Part shown: in pieces, positions 7,896 to 28,643 of the stretch | Position numbering within the stretch: the first letter of the stretch is position 1 | How the letters are laid out: each line of letters opens with the position of its first letter | Origin: a virus | Length of the DNA: 61,912 bases | IMG/VR virus record: IMGVR_UViG_3300045988_115461 | Direction: 5' to 3' (one strand) | Position numbers and translations under genes: made by a program | The notes under the pieces: model-generated | Databases searched by the model: none | What the model was told of the DNA's origin: nothing | What the model saw: the letters and a program-made list of their open reading frames with translations, nothing else

Positions 7896-8643
7896 ATATA
7901 AATTTTACGCCACTATTCTTGACTCCTTTTGGGGGTATTTGAATAGTGATGTGGTTTGGGAAAAATACTGGGGGTGGTCTGAAAATCCACCCCACACACC
8001 CGAACAGTTTCACGAGTTGCAGTTTCAAGAACTCATTGATCGCATTAATCGTAAACCTTTCGATAGCGAAGCTGCGGATAAAGGGACAGCGTTTAACGAA
8101 TTGGTGGATGCTCTTATAGAAAATAGGAAACCTAATAAGATGAACGTAGAGAGAAATGCCGAGAATACTTGCTATACGGTTGTTTACAATAACCGTACAT
8201 TCGTTTTTCCCATCTCTCTTTGCCGTGAGTTTGTTGATTACTTTAAAGGCGCATTGACCCAGATTAGAGTAGAAGCAATCCTGCCAACTGCATACGGTAA
8301 TGTTTTGGTTTACGGTCTGATTGACGAGTTGATGCCTACCACCGTTCACGACATCAAAACGACCGGAAGTTATACGGTTGGAAAGTTTAAGGATCATCAT
8401 CAACACCTTGTTTATTTGTATTGTCTGAATAAAAACGGTATTCCAATAAAAGACTTTGAATATAATATTGTTGAATTTGGGAAAAATGGAAACGTTGTTG
8501 GTACTTATACTGAACTATACAATTATAATCCAGATACATACATGCCAAAACTTACTTCTATATGCGAAGAATTTATTTGTTTTCTCAATGAAAACAAAGA
8601 CTTAATAACTGATTTGAAGATATTTGGTAAAGATGGAAAATGA
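7882..8643 (+). CDS. PD-(D/E)xK-type nuclease (putative recombination exonuclease)
   Basis: Start at MQQLKYKFYAT. The motif VHDIKTTGSY lies downstream of GLIDEL. The gene follows the Sak4-like ATPase. Confidence 0.5.
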   Translation: MQQLKYKFYATILDSFWGYLNSDVVWEKYWGWSENPPHTPEQFHELQFQELIDRINRKPFDSEAADKGTAFNELVDALIENRKPNKMNVERNAENTCYTVVYNNRTFVFPISLCREFVDYFKGALTQIRVEAILPTAYGNVLVYGLIDELMPTTVHDIKTTGSYTVGKFKDHHQHLVYLYCLNKNGIPIKDFEYNIVEFGKNGNVVGTYTELYNYNPDTYMPKLTSICEEFICFLNENKDLITDLKIFGKDGK

Positions 8644-9190
8644 AATTTGGAAAGATATTCAAGGATATGAAGGTTTGTATCAAATATCAAATTTAGGTAG
8701 GGTACGTTCTATTGATAGAATTGTTGGGTATAGATATAAAGGGAAACAAAGGGTCTATAAAGGTCGTATTTTAAAGCAAATGACAAGAAATGGATATTTA
8801 TATGTGAGTCTATCGAAAGAAAATGTATTAAAACAGAAAAATATTCATCGACTTGTAGCTAATGCTTTTCTACCTAATCCATCAAAATTACCGATTATTA
8901 ATCATATAGATGAAAATAAGAAAAATAATATGGTTTCTAATTTAGAATGGTGTACTTGTGCCTATAATACCAATTATGGCAGTGGTAGAAAGAAACAAGC
9001 TGAATCACAACAAAAGGTTGTATTGCAATACGATAGAAATGGGAATTTGTTAAATCAATACCCATCTGTAACGATAGCCGCATTACAGAATGGCTACAAC
9101 TTAAAGACTGTATCCCAATGTTGTCGTGGATGTACAAAAAGCGCATATAATTATATATGGAAATATAAATATGATATTCAATCTGAATAA
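8633..9190 (+). CDS. HNH homing endonuclease with a NUMOD4 motif
   Basis: WKDIQGYEGLYQISNLGRVRS (NUMOD4) and HRLVANAF...INHIDENKKNNMVSNLEW (HNH_3). Confidence 0.85.
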   Translation: MENEIWKDIQGYEGLYQISNLGRVRSIDRIVGYRYKGKQRVYKGRILKQMTRNGYLYVSLSKENVLKQKNIHRLVANAFLPNPSKLPIINHIDENKKNNMVSNLEWCTCAYNTNYGSGRKKQAESQQKVVLQYDRNGNLLNQYPSVTIAALQNGYNLKTVSQCCRGCTKSAYNYIWKYKYDIQSE

Positions 9191-11392: not shown

Positions 11393-11496
11393 GCCGGGTG
11401 AAAGTCCCGGCATACGGGCGGTCAGTGTTCTGGGATGAAACGTTACAGAGTGCGCACGATGTAAAGAGATCGGTTCGATACCGGTACCGTCCACAA
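11393..11496 (+). ncRNA. Structured tRNA-like non-coding element B (paralog of 5316..5411)
   Basis: Hairpin gccgggtgaaagtcccggc. Acceptor-like helix gggcggt (11416..11422) with accgtcc (11486..11492). T-arm-like atcgg-ttcgata-ccggt. The element ends in acaa. Confidence 0.55.
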
Positions 11497-24452: not shown

Positions 24453-24659
24453 ATGAACTCAATTTACGTAAACGGTTGCAGCGTATGTCAACCCGGTAAA
24501 GAGAATTACACTACCTACACAACAAAGTTGAGAGGTAAGAGAGTGAGAATGTGCCAGTACGATTACCGTACTGAAAGTGGTGAACTGTTTTCTTGTTGTG
24601 CGCCTACTTTAGAGGCGTGCAGAGAGAAAAGGGATAAATGGCTTAGTTTACGACAATAA
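24453..24659 (+). CDS. Small Cys-rich protein (68 aa)
   Basis: CSVCQPG...CQYD...CCAPTLEAC. Confidence 0.45.
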   Translation: MNSIYVNGCSVCQPGKENYTTYTTKLRGKRVRMCQYDYRTESGELFSCCAPTLEACREKRDKWLSLRQ

Positions 24660-24695
24660 ATCGATTGTCATAAATAACGATTGAAGATGTTTCTG

Positions 24696-24703: not shown

Positions 24704-24730
24704 GTTATGGTTGTACCTTAGTGGTATGAT

Positions 24731-24803
24731 CGCGGGTTAGAGCAGTGGTCAGCTCGTCACTTCGACTTGGTGAAGGTCAACGGTTCGATTCCGTTACCCG
24801 CAA
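24731..24803 (+). tRNA. tRNA with an initiator-type scaffold and a non-CAU anticodon loop (UCGACUU; nominal anticodon GAC)
   Basis: A 73-nt cloverleaf folds by hand: acceptor cgcgggt/acccgca with a C1xA72 mismatch, D-arm gagc-agtggtca-gctc, anticodon arm tcact-tcgactt-ggtga, variable loop aggtc, T-arm aacgg-ttcgatt-ccgtt. No CCA is encoded. Confidence 0.75.
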
Positions 24804-24836: not shown

Positions 24837-25226
24837 ATGAATATTTTGACGCTTTCGATTAAACAGAAGTTTTTTGATGAAATTTTAGCCGGTAATAAAA
24901 CACAAGAGTTTAGAGAGATCCGGCCTAATACTTCTCAAAAATATGTCCGGTATAAAGTTGATGACAAAGAATATAAGCATTTTGAAGAAGTACCAGAAGA
25001 TCAAGAACCCGAAGTGGTGCCGGTTGAATACGATGCTATTAAGTTTCTAACCGGTGAGTACAAGGGTACACGTCCATTTGCGATCGTCGAAATAAAAGGG
25101 GCGAAAGTAGAGATCTTGACTGATGAAGACGGCGATGAAATCCCTTATGAAGTCGATGGCGTTGAATACGTAATGGCTCAGATCGTTTATGATCTAGGTA
25201 AGGTATTAGATAAATCCAATGTTTAA
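24837..25226 (+). CDS. ASCH-domain (PUA-like) protein
   Basis: LTLSIKQKFFDEILAGNKTQEFREIR...AIKFLTGEYKGTRPFAIVEIKG. The start is taken at the CACGATTATG motif (track ORF starts at 24819). Confidence 0.65.
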   Translation: MNILTLSIKQKFFDEILAGNKTQEFREIRPNTSQKYVRYKVDDKEYKHFEEVPEDQEPEVVPVEYDAIKFLTGEYKGTRPFAIVEIKGAKVEILTDEDGDEIPYEVDGVEYVMAQIVYDLGKVLDKSNV

Positions 25227-25408: not shown

Positions 25409-26077
25409 ATGACCTTGCTTGAGAGAACATATAGGACGATAGACCTCGTTAGAGTAAAATCTAATGAGGCTATCGTTTTTTGTTCTCTGGGTAAGGATAG
25501 CCTTGTGTTGCTGGATCTGATCTATCCTGAATTTGACCGGATTGTATGTGTATTCATGTACTTTGTTGAAGGATTAGAACATATCGAAAGGTATATCAAG
25601 TGGATAAAAGCTAAATATCCGAAAGTTGAGTTTGTTCAGGTGCCACACTGGAATCTTACTTATATTCTCCGATCCGGTATGTATTGTGTGCCTAATCCGA
25701 AGATAAAGCTCTTGAAGCTGGCAGATGTTGATTTAGCTATGCGGTTAAGGTTTGGCATCGACTTCGTTTTTTACGGGATGAAGAAAGCCGATAGCATGAA
25801 CCGCCGGTTAATGTTGAATACCTATCCGGATTATGAAAACGCAGGGAAGGTTTATCCTCTGGCCGATTGGACGCAAAGAGATGTGCTTACTTACATGAGA
25901 CAGAAAGGACTTCCCGAACCAGTCCGGTATTCAAACAAGGCATCTGGCGGTATCGGGTTCAATCTTGATTGTTTCTTATGGCTTCGTAAGAATTACCCGG
26001 ATGATTTGAGGAGGATTATCAAAATTTTTCCAATGAGTGAAAGAATTTTATTTGAATATGACAATGGAACTAAGTAA
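25409..26077 (+). CDS. PAPS-reductase-family (adenine-nucleotide alpha-hydrolase) protein
   Basis: A PP-loop-like VFCSLGKDSLVLLDL; the size and the position next to a ParB-like gene resemble IbrA/DndC-type proteins. Confidence 0.65.
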   Translation: MTLLERTYRTIDLVRVKSNEAIVFCSLGKDSLVLLDLIYPEFDRIVCVFMYFVEGLEHIERYIKWIKAKYPKVEFVQVPHWNLTYILRSGMYCVPNPKIKLLKLADVDLAMRLRFGIDFVFYGMKKADSMNRRLMLNTYPDYENAGKVYPLADWTQRDVLTYMRQKGLPEPVRYSNKASGGIGFNLDCFLWLRKNYPDDLRRIIKIFPMSERILFEYDNGTK

Positions 26078-26804
26078 ATACATAAAGAGTGAATCGGTAG
26101 AACTTAATCGTTCTGCCATTCACTTTGCGGACTACAATCCCCGAAAACTATCCGAGGAGTCACGCAAGACCTTGAAGCGTGGTATTAAGAAATTCGGTCT
26201 GGTTGGTGGAATTGCAGTGAACAAGCGTACCGGTCTGACCGTAGTCAGCGGGCATCAGCGTTTGTCCGTCATGGATGAATTGCAGAAGTATCCGGAGAAT
26301 GACTACAAGATCCGAGTTGATGTGATTGATGTAGACGAAAAGCAGGAGAAGGAACTAAATATTTTAATGAACAATCCAAATGCGCAAGGTACATGGGATT
26401 TCGATGCCCTTGCACAGCTTGTTCCCGATATTGATTGGAAAGACGCAGGTCTGACCGATGCCGATCTAAACATGATTGGCGTTGATTATCTGTTGCAGAC
26501 CGAAGCGGAAAACTCCATTGCAGAAGCTCTCTCCGATATGATGTCACCTGTCACCGAACAGAAAGAAGCCGAGAAAGCCGCCAAGCAATTAGAGCGTGCA
26601 GAGAAGGTTGCCCACATGAAAGAAGTCAAGCAGCAGGTAAAGGAGAACGCACAGAAGACAGCCGAGGATATGGATGCCTATGTGATGTTGTCCTTTGATA
26701 CCTACGAGGCGAAAGCTGCTTTCATGGCAAGATTTGGGTATGATCCGGATATGAAGTTTATAAAAGGAGAGGTGTTCTCTGACCAAGTAGAAAGGGTGGA
26801 TTGA
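26037..26804 (+). CDS. ParB/Srx N-terminal-domain protein
   Basis: IHFADYNPRKL...FGLVGGIAVNKRTGLTVVSGHQRL. The start is uncertain (26037, 26058 or 26064). Confidence 0.65.
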   Translation: MKEFYLNMTMELSKYIKSESVELNRSAIHFADYNPRKLSEESRKTLKRGIKKFGLVGGIAVNKRTGLTVVSGHQRLSVMDELQKYPENDYKIRVDVIDVDEKQEKELNILMNNPNAQGTWDFDALAQLVPDIDWKDAGLTDADLNMIGVDYLLQTEAENSIAEALSDMMSPVTEQKEAEKAAKQLERAEKVAHMKEVKQQVKENAQKTAEDMDAYVMLSFDTYEAKAAFMARFGYDPDMKFIKGEVFSDQVERVD

Positions 26805-26805
26805 T

Positions 26806-27441
26806 ATGATAGAGCCTAAGCATGATTACGCAGGAGATAAATTTTATGAAGATGTTTTTGCATTTGCCTTTCAGGGGATGACAGATGCAGAGGTGGCTTA
26901 TAGTCTTGGATTAACACCAGAAGTCTTTTCTCGGATGAAAAATGGAAAATATGAAGGGTGGAATGAAGAAGAAAATGATTATCGTAGCGAAAGATTATCT
27001 CAAGTGTTAGTGCGTGCTCGTATGAAAGTTAATTCTATTGTTCGTGGTGCATATTTGAAAGGAGCTTTGGGCGGGAAAAAGATAAAGAGTATCACGAAGC
27101 GTTATGTTCAGGATAGATGTCTGTGTGAAGGAAAAGATAAAGAGTGTGTCCAATGTGGTGGTACTGGATGGGTGCAACTCACGGATAAGGCTATATCTCA
27201 AGAAACAGAAGCAGAACTTCCTCCCAATATGCAGGCACTTTCTACATGGCTTTATCATCATGATGAAGAATGGAGAAAGTTGGAATCCACATCAAAAGTT
27301 GATATTACAACTAATGGGAAAGACATGGTAACGCCCCCTTCTGTAAATATTCAAGTTGTAGCCAATGACCCCCAATTATTGGAATTACAAGATAAGTCTG
27401 TAACATTAAAACAGGATAAAGAGTCGGGCAAGACGAACTAA
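26806..27441 (+). CDS. Putative terminase small subunit
   Basis: Lies immediately upstream of the large terminase. It has an N-terminal HTH-like MTDAEVAYSLGLTPEVFSRMK and a CxxC..CxxC cluster. Confidence 0.45.
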   Translation: MIEPKHDYAGDKFYEDVFAFAFQGMTDAEVAYSLGLTPEVFSRMKNGKYEGWNEEENDYRSERLSQVLVRARMKVNSIVRGAYLKGALGGKKIKSITKRYVQDRCLCEGKDKECVQCGGTGWVQLTDKAISQETEAELPPNMQALSTWLYHHDEEWRKLESTSKVDITTNGKDMVTPPSVNIQVVANDPQLLELQDKSVTLKQDKESGKTN

Positions 27442-27443
27442 AT

Positions 27444-28643
27444 ATGAAATGCACCCCGATTCTCTATCGGGCTATGAACGCTTTGAATAGTGGTCGGTTT
27501 AATGTAATGGTCTTTGAAGGAGGTTCTCGCTCATCAAAGACCTATTCGCTTATTCAGTTCTTTATCATCTATGCCATTAATAATTGGCAACGTTCTAACC
27601 GTGTTGTCATAGCCCGCAAAAAAGGAACATGGCTGGCATCTACGGTATGGACGGACTTTAAAAATATACTCTTAGAACTTGGTTTGTTTAATTGCTGTCG
27701 AATAAATAATACAATCAAAACGATTCAACTTTATACTACTACATTTGAGTTTGTAGGACTCGACGATGTTCAGAGACTTCATGGATTAACTACAGACATA
27801 TTTTGGATTAATGAGGCTATGGAGGCATTGAAGGATGACTTTGACCAATTGGAACAAAGATGCTCTCGTTTTGCTATTCTTGATTACAATCCATCGGCAG
27901 AGGAACATTGGATTTATGACAATGTATGTACACGTGATGATTGTTACTTTGACCATTCGACTATGTTGGATAATCCGTTTATCCCGGAGAATATGAAACG
28001 GAAAATATTATCCTACGAGCCTACTGAATACAACTATTCACAAGGTACGGCGGATAAGCGTAAATGGCTTATATATGGACTTGGTAAGCGTGCAAAAATT
28101 GAAGGTCTGATATTTGAAAATTACACTATCATTAAGGACGTTCCTATATGGGTTAAACGTAGATGGTACGGATTGGACTTTGGGTATAGCAATGATCCAA
28201 CTGCCTGTTCTGAAAATGGATTCTTGGATAATACCATTTATATAGATGAAAAATTCTACGAGACGAATTTGCTTTCCTCTGATATAATAAAGAAGTTCAA
28301 GAAACTTCCTAAACTTAAAATATGGTCGGAGAGTGCAGATCCTCGTTTAATTGCAGAGATACACAATGCAGGGTTCAATATTCACCCAGTGCAAAAATAT
28401 GCCGGTTCGGTAGAAGCTGGTATTGATTTTATGAAATCAAAGAAAATATATATCACAGAAAACTCACTTAATGCAAAAAAAGAATTAGATAATTACACCT
28501 ATCAGCAAGACAAGAACGGGAAGTGGCTTAACGAGCCGGTTGATGACTTTAATCATATTTTGGATGAAGTGCGGTATTGTTGTATGATGGAATTAATGGG
28601 AAAACGTCCCGTTGTAGACCATTCTGGAGTATTTGGACATTAA
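27444..28643 (+). CDS. Terminase large subunit (PBSX-like)
   Basis: A Walker A-like FEGGSRSSKT, a nuclease-half DFGYSNDPTA, and the usual size and position. Confidence 0.85.
   Translation: MKCTPILYRAMNALNSGRFNVMVFEGGSRSSKTYSLIQFFIIYAINNWQRSNRVVIARKKGTWLASTVWTDFKNILLELGLFNCCRINNTIKTIQLYTTTFEFVGLDDVQRLHGLTTDIFWINEAMEALKDDFDQLEQRCSRFAILDYNPSAEEHWIYDNVCTRDDCYFDHSTMLDNPFIPENMKRKILSYEPTEYNYSQGTADKRKWLIYGLGKRAKIEGLIFENYTIIKDVPIWVKRRWYGLDFGYSNDPTACSENGFLDNTIYIDEKFYETNLLSSDIIKKFKKLPKLKIWSESADPRLIAEIHNAGFNIHPVQKYAGSVEAGIDFMKSKKIYITENSLNAKKELDNYTYQQDKNGKWLNEPVDDFNHILDEVRYCCMMELMGKRPVVDHSGVFGH

Follow-up and report, generated by a model that had tools for sequence, protein, structure and literature searches.

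The 61,912-nucleotide (nt) stretch of viral DNA IMGVR_UViG_3300045988_115461, analysed at its whole length and here called the window, carries on its plus strand at 24731..24803 a genuine functional gene for a transfer RNA (tRNA), and this tRNA belongs to a family which is widespread in temperate Bacteroidota phages. Judged by segment comparison, the family is a mosaic in which an initiator-type acceptor, D-arm and variable loop are combined with a tRNA-Val-type anticodon arm. The oddities shared across the family are a mismatch at 1:72, U37 and an absent run of G:C pairs in the anticodon stem, and the gene is the first element downstream of a conserved late-operon promoter. The reading favoured in our study, to which a probability of about 35% is given, is that of an initiation-pathway tRNA which would act at GUC/GUU in the late phase with low or conditional efficiency. 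It is favoured because an ortholog with a CAU anticodon makes it parsimonious, because no partner enzyme is needed and because the anticodon is under selection as well as the formylation determinants.

The tRNA gene and its cloverleaf

The gene was recognised by ARAGORN, Rfam, a covariance model of the family, covariation and segment comparison, and its parts are as follows.

24731..24803, plus strand: whole tRNA, 73 nt
24731-24737 with 24796-24802, plus strand: acceptor stem CGCGGGT/ACCCGCA, with C1 (24731) opposite A72 (24802)
24740-24755, plus strand: D-arm, D-stem GAGC/GCTC with A11:U24
24757-24761 with 24769-24773, plus strand: anticodon stem TCACT/GGTGA, terminal pair U31.G39
24762-24768, plus strand: anticodon loop U32 C33 G34 A35 C36 U37 U38
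24764-24766, plus strand: anticodon GAC, between C33 (24763) and U37 (24767)
24774-24778, plus strand: variable loop AGGTC
24779-24795, plus strand: T-arm, T-loop TTCGATT
24803, plus strand: discriminator A73

The letters read CGCGGGT TA GAGC AGTGGTCA GCTC G TCACT TCGACTT GGTGA AGGTC AACGG TTCGATT CCGTT ACCCGCA A, and CCA is not encoded, the bases after 24803 being C-T-A. The first-pass annotation had described a 73-nt tRNA with the C1xA72 mismatch, the GAGC/GCTC D-stem with A11:U24, the AGGUC variable loop, A73, the tcact/ggtga stem and the loop U-C-G-A-C-U-U, and each of these was found at the positions listed. ARAGORN called the gene tRNA-Val(GAC). The Rfam tRNA family RF00005 scored 50.4 bits against a gathering threshold of 29 (E = 7.5e-8 across the whole window with relaxed filters), and the four-helix cloverleaf, the T-loop TTCGAnT and the D-loop GG of that family are all present; the family covariance model gave 97.8 bits. 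A whole-window Rfam scan in gathering mode returned no family, which is an artefact of the speed filter, and since a tRNA with such a score was missed, gathering-mode negatives on long windows are untrustworthy for tRNAs of this kind. A confident ordinary isotype with a canonical loop had been named beforehand as the outcome that would speak against an unusual tRNA. The Val(GAC) call and the U33 of the relatives go in that direction, whereas the initiator-type body and U37 remain.

The cloverleaf of the family is proven by covariation. In an alignment of 34 distinct alleles (alignment A2), 99.7% of the cells were paired and 10 of the 20 pairs had changed on both sides. The covariation score was 0.486 against 0.164 in shuffles, a value reached by 0 of 500 shuffles, and pairing dropped to 41-51% in the slid registers used as control. 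Covariation was seen in the anticodon stem (3/5 pairs variable), in the T stem (5/5) and in the acceptor pairs 6:67 and 7:66. The occurrence of G.U pairs on the plus strand only shows that selection acts on the RNA of this strand. The suggestion of a pseudo-tRNA therefore had to be dropped, because covariation extends to all four helices and purifying selection on the loop is strong; the lost pairing, lost loop residues and drift of a pseudogene were not seen, and a degenerate or remodelled appearance is confined to the L125-type and L483/484 copies. A 9-nt loop formed by opening of the terminal U-G pair had also been considered, but pair 31:39 is U.G in 44, C:G in 3 and G:C in 1 of the alleles of the wider family, which leaves a loop of 7 nt.

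Conservation was followed position by position in 48 distinct alleles of this wider family. The 1:72 position is non-Watson-Crick in 47/48 (C.A in 36, A.A in 6, G.A in 2, besides C.U, U.C and U.U) and is never G:C or C:G, the sole paired case being a weak U:A in a CAU allele. G2:C71 and C3:G70 are kept in 47/48 alleles, G4:C69, G5:C68 and A11:U24 in 48/48, and free variation is seen at pairs 6:67 and 7:66 and in the T-stem. Position 37 is a pyrimidine in 47/48, which are all the recoded alleles (almost always U37), and A is found solely in the CAU allele. The G29-G31:C39-C41 run is kept in none of the recoded alleles; the main clade has A/G/U29, C30:G40 and U31.G39, and pair 30:40 is C:G in 37 alleles and G:C in 11. 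The GAC anticodon is invariant in the main clade despite three covarying pairs in the anticodon stem. A survey of the loop in homologous phages had been proposed as a check, and the loop was indeed found to be conserved, as UUGACUU in 34/48 alleles.

Position 33 is U in 43/48 alleles and C in 5/48. The first-pass annotation had called both C33 and U37 atypical; U37 is an oddity of the whole family, whereas C33 is a derived minority state that has arisen at least two times and is a tolerated recurrent variant, not the defining feature of the family. The window allele is two bases apart from the U33 allele of L204. The UCGACUU loop occurs in 4/48 alleles, three of them closely related and of the window lineage, and the fourth, in L600, independent and on a different stem. 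The C33-GAC alleles of the window lineage are present in at least 6 viral contigs as three alleles, all with intact cloverleaves, and the ASCH genes found with them have 100% and 58% identity to that of the window. C33 is also found in the CAU tRNA of L477/478. Apart from this family, C33 was observed within the loop UCGACAC in two unrelated elongator-type phage tRNA-Val(GAC) genes, L007 3350-3424 (minus strand) and L037 808-880 (plus strand), both with a normal 1:72 pair; the former encodes CCA and was found on a viral contig of 618 kb. In phage tRNA-Val genes, C33 thus seems to recur beside GAC.

Initiator and valine features

The E. coli tRNA-fMet and tRNA-Val(GAC) references were verified as exact annotated E. 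coli genes. Acceptor and discriminator together match tRNA-fMet at 13-15 of 15 positions as against 1-2 of 15 for tRNA-Val(GAC), and the identity to tRNA-fMet is up to 10/11 in the D-stem region and 5/5 in the variable loop, in agreement with the initiator-like acceptor, D-arm and variable loop proposed in the first-pass annotation. The anticodon arm matches tRNA-Val(GAC) valV/W at 7/10 stem and 5-6/7 loop positions, compared with 0-4/10 and 1-2/7 for tRNA-fMet.

In the window tRNA the stem pairs are A29:U41, C30:G40 and U31.G39 in place of the three G:C pairs of initiators (29-31 with 39-41), and the anticodon is GAC in place of the CAU which gives methionyl-tRNA synthetase identity. The elongator features are likewise replaced, paired 1:72 by C1 x A72, pyrimidine 11:purine 24 by A11:U24, and U33 with purine 37 by C33 and U37. 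The tRNA is thus neither an initiator, for want of CAU and the three G:C pairs, nor an ordinary tRNA-Val, for want of paired 1:72, pyrimidine 11:purine 24 and purine 37. It was rightly said not to be a normal AUG initiator, given the non-initiator-like anticodon arm with GAC and no three G:C pairs, and its description as an odd elongator is also supported. The identity elements of valyl-tRNA synthetase (ValRS), A35, C36 and A73, are all present, and G34 A35 C36 with A73 is invariant in the GAC clade.

Among known systems, the G34C36 (GAC) mutant of the E. coli initiator, which is said to come from the Schulman and RajBhandary laboratories, has the same 1:72 mismatch, G2:C71, C3:G70, A11:U24, AGGUC, A73 and GAC. 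This mutant is valylated by ValRS, given a formyl group by methionyl-tRNA formyltransferase (MTF) and initiates at GUC (PMC2268962). In it the three G:C pairs, A37 and the loop of the initiator are retained, whereas the stem of the phage tRNA resembles that of tRNA-Val and its loop has U37 and, in the window allele, C33; moreover, the mutant is a laboratory construct, while the phage tRNA is natural, widespread and phage-encoded. In case of the E. coli '3GC' and C30:G40 mutants, the initiator acceptor is again the same and the G29-G31:C39-C41 run is destroyed, the main phage clade having exactly C30:G40. These are engineered loss-of-function mutants with a CUA anticodon, which are charged and formylated but poor in the peptidyl (P) site (PMC2268962), whereas in the phage family selection has preserved the state lacking the three G:C pairs in dozens of alleles.

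Bacterial and phage-encoded tRNA-fMet share the acceptor, D-stem region and variable loop with the phage tRNA, and a CAU version is present in the same slot in L477/478; the phage tRNA differs by the lack of CAU and of three G:C pairs and by its TTCGAnT-type T-loop and U37. The E. coli valV/valW tRNA-Val(GAC) has the same GAC, A73, CAC/GUG stem core and loop UUGAC-U, but paired 1:72, pyrimidine 11:purine 24 and A37 where the phage tRNA has unpaired 1:72, A11:U24 and U37. In lambdoid Stx phages, the ileZ-argN-argO tRNA genes lie just downstream of the late promoter and thus also head the late transcript of a temperate phage, but these are ordinary elongators for rare codons.

Origin by anticodon switching

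The slot upstream of the ASCH-like gene is occupied in divergent relatives by initiator-bodied tRNAs with AAC, GGU or CAU anticodons, and in one further locus by GAC with C33.

L475/476, L479, L548, L555, L564, L590, L639: AAC (Val), loops CUAACCU or UUAACUU, 1:72 as C.A, U.C or A.A
L480/481/L576: GGU (Thr), loop UUGGUUC, 1:72 as G.A
L477/478: CAU, three G:C pairs, A37 and U1:A72, a regular initiator type
L600: GAC with C33

All the recoded slot tRNAs have pyrimidine 37 and an unpaired 1:72, and the discriminator is C73 in L475 and L480/481. Because the AAC, GGU and CAU relatives occupy the same slot, evolution from a phage initiator tRNA by anticodon switching is indicated. The simplest history shown by this comparison is that a phage initiator tRNA heading the late operon was recoded, mostly to valine, through replacement of the anticodon arm. 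In a first sample of initiator-bodied tRNAs from viral contigs there were 97 CAU, 4 GAC and 1 AAC, with one aberrant call, and in a second 107 CAU, 11 AAC, 4 GAC and 3 GGU; GAC, AAC and GGU were the only clean non-CAU anticodons in the two samples together.

Some related tRNAs were observed along with these. The slot tRNA of L483/L484 (about 1400-1475) is uncalled by ARAGORN; its acceptor and its CUACU-UUGACUU-GGUAG arm are intact, the D-stem is GAGA/TCTC (a compensatory change), the D-loop is without GG, and in the T-loop GGCAGAG stands in the place of TTCGAnT, a joint change of the two partners of the elbow. In L152 at 838-912 (minus strand), another tRNA combines GAC with a body of initiator type and has C1 x C72, stem UCAGG/CCUGA and loop UUGACGA; its stem keeps G30:C40 and G31:C39, it adjoins an integrase in an unrelated GC-richer context, and it is possibly a gene of the host where a prophage joins it. 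Phage CAU initiator-type tRNAs with the loop UUCAUUC (U37, C38) and only two G:C pairs (UGAGG/CCUCA) occur in L376, L377, L383, L394, L431, L407, L363, L179 and others. In one sample, UCAGG/CCUGA was the commonest stem among phage initiator-bodied CAU tRNAs (27/97), and from this prevalence and the UUCAUUC set, non-canonical anticodon arms appear to be frequent in phage initiator tRNAs.

Distribution of the family

The window ends, of about 50 nt each, are identical (1-50 and 61863-61912, TTTGTTATTTGTTTGGTCCGCATGTAGCTG...), which marks the window as the full genome of a phage, about 61.86 kb long and assembled as a circle. This phage is temperate: it encodes an integrase (181-1449) and an S24/CI-type repressor (3171-3881). 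Its nearest cultured relative is the Bacteroides phage BS-TP2, in whose GenBank record the homologous tRNA is unannotated. BS-TP2 is a temperate phage of B. salyersiae which was detected in 33.5% of 930 healthy-donor gut viromes from China (PMC12694917). In scans of viral contigs, the tRNA was found in hundreds of contigs and in at least 48 distinct alleles, the BS-TP2 allele being identical across 111 loci. Among bacterial genomes, scanned at one genome per species, it is present in 23, all Bacteroidota and in prophage context (Bacteroides, Parabacteroides, Prevotella, Phocaeicola, Mediterranea, Hallella, Azobacteroides and Chryseobacterium, and also a metagenome-assembled genome of Porphyromonadaceae). 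The remaining 11 matches of that scan are chance matches in unrelated DNA, and no ordinary elongator tRNA with the phage-type anticodon arm was seen among the genomes scanned. A blastn search of the tRNA against E. coli genomes gave no match, within the limit of its sensitivity. The literature searched gave no description of this initiator-bodied phage tRNA-Val, and the BS-TP2 and BV01 papers discuss no phage-encoded tRNA; the tRNA is probably missed or mislabelled more widely in gut virome annotation.

In at least 12 contigs, an HNH_3 homing-endonuclease reading frame (169 amino acids; 30.5 bits against a cut-off of 24.8) follows the first 44 nt of the tRNA (L170 6534-7157; also L125, L133, L158, L174, L183, L191-L194, L232 and L238). 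Downstream of it stands a complete but divergent tRNA allele (CGCGGAA..., stem CCACT/GGTGG), which in the L125-type copy is partly degenerate in appearance. The interrupted copies are the classic footprint of a homing endonuclease which targets this tRNA gene.

Genomic context and late promoter

The neighbourhood of the tRNA gene in the window is as follows.

24453-24659: DUF3873 gene, an early gene at the boundary where the tRNA lies
24652..24669, plus strand: palindrome GACAAT-AAATCG-ATTGTC, overlapping the DUF3873 stop codon
24696..24703, plus strand: TATCTTTG, a TAnnTTTG Bacteroides-type -7 box, 27 nt upstream of tRNA position 1
24714..24721, plus strand: TACCTTAG, a second -7 box with one mismatch, about 62 nt from the palindrome
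24837..25226, plus strand: ASCH-like gene, 129 amino acids, starting 33 nt past the end of the tRNA as the nearest protein gene on its downstream side
25409-26077: PAPS-reductase-like gene
26058-26804: ParB-like gene
26806-27441: TerS
27444-28643: TerL

This order is kept in nearly all representatives, the tRNA ending about 20-35 nt before the ASCH ATG and being followed by the PAPS-reductase-like, ParB-like, TerS and TerL genes. The synteny of tRNA and ASCH gene holds even at 36-48% identity of the ASCH protein, and the tRNA is present at 78/79 fetched loci with ASCH homologs, the exception being a truncated contig.

The first-pass annotation had given the tRNA its own TAnnTTTG box. The box is present at the place listed and is conserved in relatives, although the window has about as many copies of the motif itself (58) as chance predicts (52.9). 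Support for the late promoter therefore comes from the conservation of the box in diverged relatives, not from motif frequency; it is retained 10-35 nt before tRNA position 1 in very different upstream contexts. At the site of TACCTTAG, the BS-TP2-type relatives have TACCTTTG. The palindrome motif [G/A]ACAAT-N6-ATTGT[C/T] stands upstream of the box in 22/35 representatives of the tRNA clade and in 41/59 loci of the L475-L533 set, the tRNA-less sister clade included, at about 62 nt from the promoter-proximal box in the loci printed. A regulator of the late promoter probably binds to this palindrome, and production of the tRNA probably starts when the late genes are switched on.

In about 45 loci of the sister clade, the same palindrome and box stand directly before the ASCH ATG without a tRNA. 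It follows that the tRNA was inserted into the leader of a late promoter which is conserved and probably depends on a regulator, and that the ASCH gene is independent of it. An obligate partnership with the ASCH protein was hence rejected, the pairing being invariant where the tRNA exists but absent from those sister-clade loci. The ASCH-like protein scored 18.4 bits with Pfam ASCH, below the cut-off of 21.2, and some homologs carry PF04266. In its motif G19-x-K21-x-x-E24-x-R26, the residues G19, E24 and R26 are invariant in alignment A3 and K21, E24 and R26 in alignment A6. The AlphaFold2 model has a predicted local distance difference test score of 92.8, and its top Foldseek matches are the ASCH structures 3iuw, 1xne and 1wk2 with weak E-values; PDB sequence searches with the protein gave no match. 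ASCH proteins are reported in a 2026 preprint to deacetylate N4-acetylcytidine in tRNA, the motif Lys and Glu being essential (bioRxiv 10.64898/2026.02.27.708502). With the K/E catalytic motif being kept, a looser functional link between tRNA and ASCH protein is possible, and the modification of host tRNAs may be a target of this late-operon gene, whatever the role of the tRNA beside it. A structured RNA in the 182-nt gap that follows the ASCH gene was considered and rejected, the gap being poorly conserved, with z = -1.8.

Predicted function

By the identity rules of E. coli, host ValRS would charge the tRNA with valine through A35, C36 and A73, and host MTF would formylate it through the unpaired 1:72, G2:C71, C3:G70 and A11:U24, determinants which are all present in the window tRNA. 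A 1:72 mismatch disfavours EF-Tu and peptidyl-tRNA hydrolase, and by the same rules the unpaired 1:72 and the formyl group would keep the tRNA from both. Established E. coli work has identified the unpaired 1:72 as the main formylation determinant, and an initiator lacking the three G:C pairs is reported to be able to initiate if the native one is in short supply (PMC3017606). The predicted product is a formyl-valyl-tRNA which is barred from elongation and is at best a weak initiator, being a poor binder of the P site. It would enter through IF2 and the P site, so that a minority of late polypeptides would start with (formyl-)valine at GUC/GUU; this is the least certain step. The efficiency is expected to be low or conditional because the anticodon stem is without the three G:C pairs.

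Several observations argue for this initiation pathway. The initiator-specific determinants are the most conserved part of the tRNA, and the AAC anticodon of the syntenic relatives also stands for valine. The gene is a target of homing endonucleases, which typically home into conserved genes. Further, no phage formyltransferase, deformylase, aminoacyl-tRNA synthetase, RNA-repair enzyme or transferase was found among the 45 proteins scanned, a set drawn from the non-structural early region and from the part of the genome that follows the tail genes; the proteins encoded next to the tRNA were scanned on their own.

A number of facts weigh against it. The three G:C pairs are absent, and pyrimidine 37 should weaken codon pairing. 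The intergenic gaps held no open frame lacking a canonical start, with one weak antisense GUC/GUU candidate only, the late genes showed no in-frame extension to such a codon, and the ASCH start is ATG in GAC, AAC, GGU and CAU phages alike. Valine is not universal, as one lineage has GGU (Thr), and L483/484 are without the D-loop GG and the T-loop TTCGA, which is odd for a tRNA working on the ribosome. Moreover, the identity rules are all borrowed from E. coli and may not be those of Bacteroides, and the tRNA is accessory, since the sister clade does without it.

Engineered initiator tRNAs have for decades supported non-methionine initiation at non-AUG codons, and we know of no natural dedicated tRNA for it. 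The broader proposal, put forward tentatively, is that such anticodon-switched initiators (GAC/AAC for Val, GGU for Thr) exist in nature in common prophages of gut Bacteroidota, are switched on with the late operon and would start proteins with formyl-valine or formyl-threonine at codons which are neither AUG nor near-cognate. If true, this would be an initiation channel private to the phage and invisible to gene finders, which could time lysis or yield hidden protein isoforms and would work on if host defence attacks tRNA-fMet. Selection has kept the features which define formylation and EF-Tu avoidance, and a naturally selected anticodon-switched initiator body would surprise a tRNA specialist. 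BS-TP2 and Bacteroides salyersiae form a cultivable phage-host pair in which an initiator, an excluded aminoacyl carrier and a defence countermeasure could be directly told apart.

Alternative explanations

The tRNA may instead be valylated (threonylated in one lineage) and then kept out of translation, either to supply its amino acid to a non-ribosomal transferase or to titrate or regulate a factor which recognises the acceptor end of initiators, such as MTF, IF2 or an acceptor-directed toxin; the 1:72 mismatch would bar EF-Tu and the missing G:C pairs would bar the P site. The same logic is seen in the staphylococcal non-proteinogenic tRNA-Gly species, which escape EF-Tu. We consider this explanation unlikely, though it fits part of the evidence. 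The conserved combination of 1:72 mismatch, C30:G40 and pyrimidine 37 is, by E. coli genetics, inactive in both elongation and initiation (PMC2268962), the amino acids implied by the anticodons, Val and Thr, are isosteric, and L483/484 keep the acceptor and anticodon arms and lose the elbow motifs of the D- and T-loops used by the ribosome; the failure to find genes with GUC/GUU starts in the gaps or as late-gene extensions also fits. On the other hand, the phage proteins scanned held no candidate transferase, and the ASCH, PAPS-reductase-like and ParB-like neighbours occur without the tRNA in the sister clade. A pure acceptor-end decoy would have no need of the invariant 11-nt anticodon stem-loop, and a real CAU initiator would serve equally well as a decoy.

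A second alternative, which appears doubtful, is an ordinary elongator tRNA-Val for GUC/GUU whose U37/C33 loop and foreign acceptor would evade host tRNA nucleases or toxins triggered late in infection. The closeness of the anticodon arm to true tRNA-Val(GAC), the probable expression with the late genes and the independent recurrence of C33 beside GAC, including that in L007 and L037, agree with it. Phage tRNAs with loop mutations at nuclease sites have been reported and proposed to give resistance to anticodon nucleases (van den Berg et al. 2023, PMC10264068); these are likewise phage-encoded, with a non-canonical loop beside an unchanged anticodon and without sign of codon supplementation, but that model concerns ordinary elongators set against host tRNAs, whereas here the whole body is initiator-type. 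An elongator would be expected to lose the 1:72 mismatch, for which one substitution is enough, yet 47/48 alleles keep it, in six combinations, and the formylation determinants are kept with it. Among the Val codons of the phage GTC is used least (15%), and early and late genes barely differ, which weighs against an elongator and led to the rejection of codon supplementation as such. The AAC clade is no copy of a host tRNA: to our knowledge, bacteria normally lack tRNA-Val(AAC). We also know of no Val-specific nuclease. A base-pairing target for the invariant CUUUGACUUGG block was tried separately and rejected, with 4 matches against 1.8 expected, one of them the gene itself.

It is improbable that the gene is mainly a cis-acting element, that is, a tRNA-shaped leader which RNase P and a 3' endonuclease would cut, setting the 5' end and the stability of the ASCH/terminase mRNA, while the released RNA would have no role of its own. 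Such a role would suit its place, since it follows the late promoter after a very short leader and precedes the first late gene, the ASCH gene, from which no terminator was found to separate it, as would the presence of the same promoter directly before the ASCH gene in the sister clade. Processing, however, needs only the acceptor/T minihelix, and GAC/AAC, U37, A73, A11:U24 and the 1:72 mismatch would be left unexplained; in L253, moreover, the tRNA stands alone and is followed by a terminator-like hairpin.

That the window allele is a dying copy, inactivated by C33 on top of U37, is very improbable. C33 does break the near-universal U33, and the minimum free energy fold of the window RNA prefers a hairpin GACUU/AGGUC in place of the anticodon stem. 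This hairpin was rejected as a selected structure, being not conserved and disrupted in the common alleles with an AGGCC variable loop, and the spread of C33 over several contigs with intact cloverleaves and diverged ASCH alleles, with its independent appearance in L600 and its presence in the L477/478 CAU tRNA, speaks against decay.

An origin as remnant or part of an attachment site, by integration into a host tRNA gene, is effectively refuted, and with it the integration signal of the first-pass annotation: the phage is temperate with an integrase and a CI-like repressor, but the integrase is 24 kb away, and the tRNA is complete, has its own promoter and RNA-level covariation, stands at the early/late boundary and is internal to the prophages in the 23 bacterial genomes.

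Other elements in the window

A kinship with two tRNA-like elements, A and B, had also been suggested for the tRNA and was not borne out. The sole other match of the family model in the window, at 11416-11493, reaches 17.9 bits (E about 0.02) and has a normal G1:C72 and no cloverleaf middle. This sequence (plus strand), which is probably one of those elements, lies in a 411-nt intergenic gap and consists of a 7-bp acceptor-like stem GGGCGGU/ACCGUCC plus A, a T-arm GGUUCGAUACC and an irregular middle of 39 nt, and it is uncalled by ARAGORN and Rfam.

Another homing-endonuclease gene, with NUMOD4 and HNH_3, is present in the early region of the window at 8633-9190 (plus strand). Its homologs (40-50% identical) sit between the PAPS-reductase-like and ParB-like genes in L120 and L144, and from these insertions elsewhere, homing endonucleases are seen to be mobile within this phage group. 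Further, a long GC-rich hairpin (GGCCCGGUU...GCCGGGC) was observed at 4877-4922 (plus strand) in the 467-nt gap 4629-5095, with a fold z-score of -2.3 and 13.2 bits under the tRNA family model.

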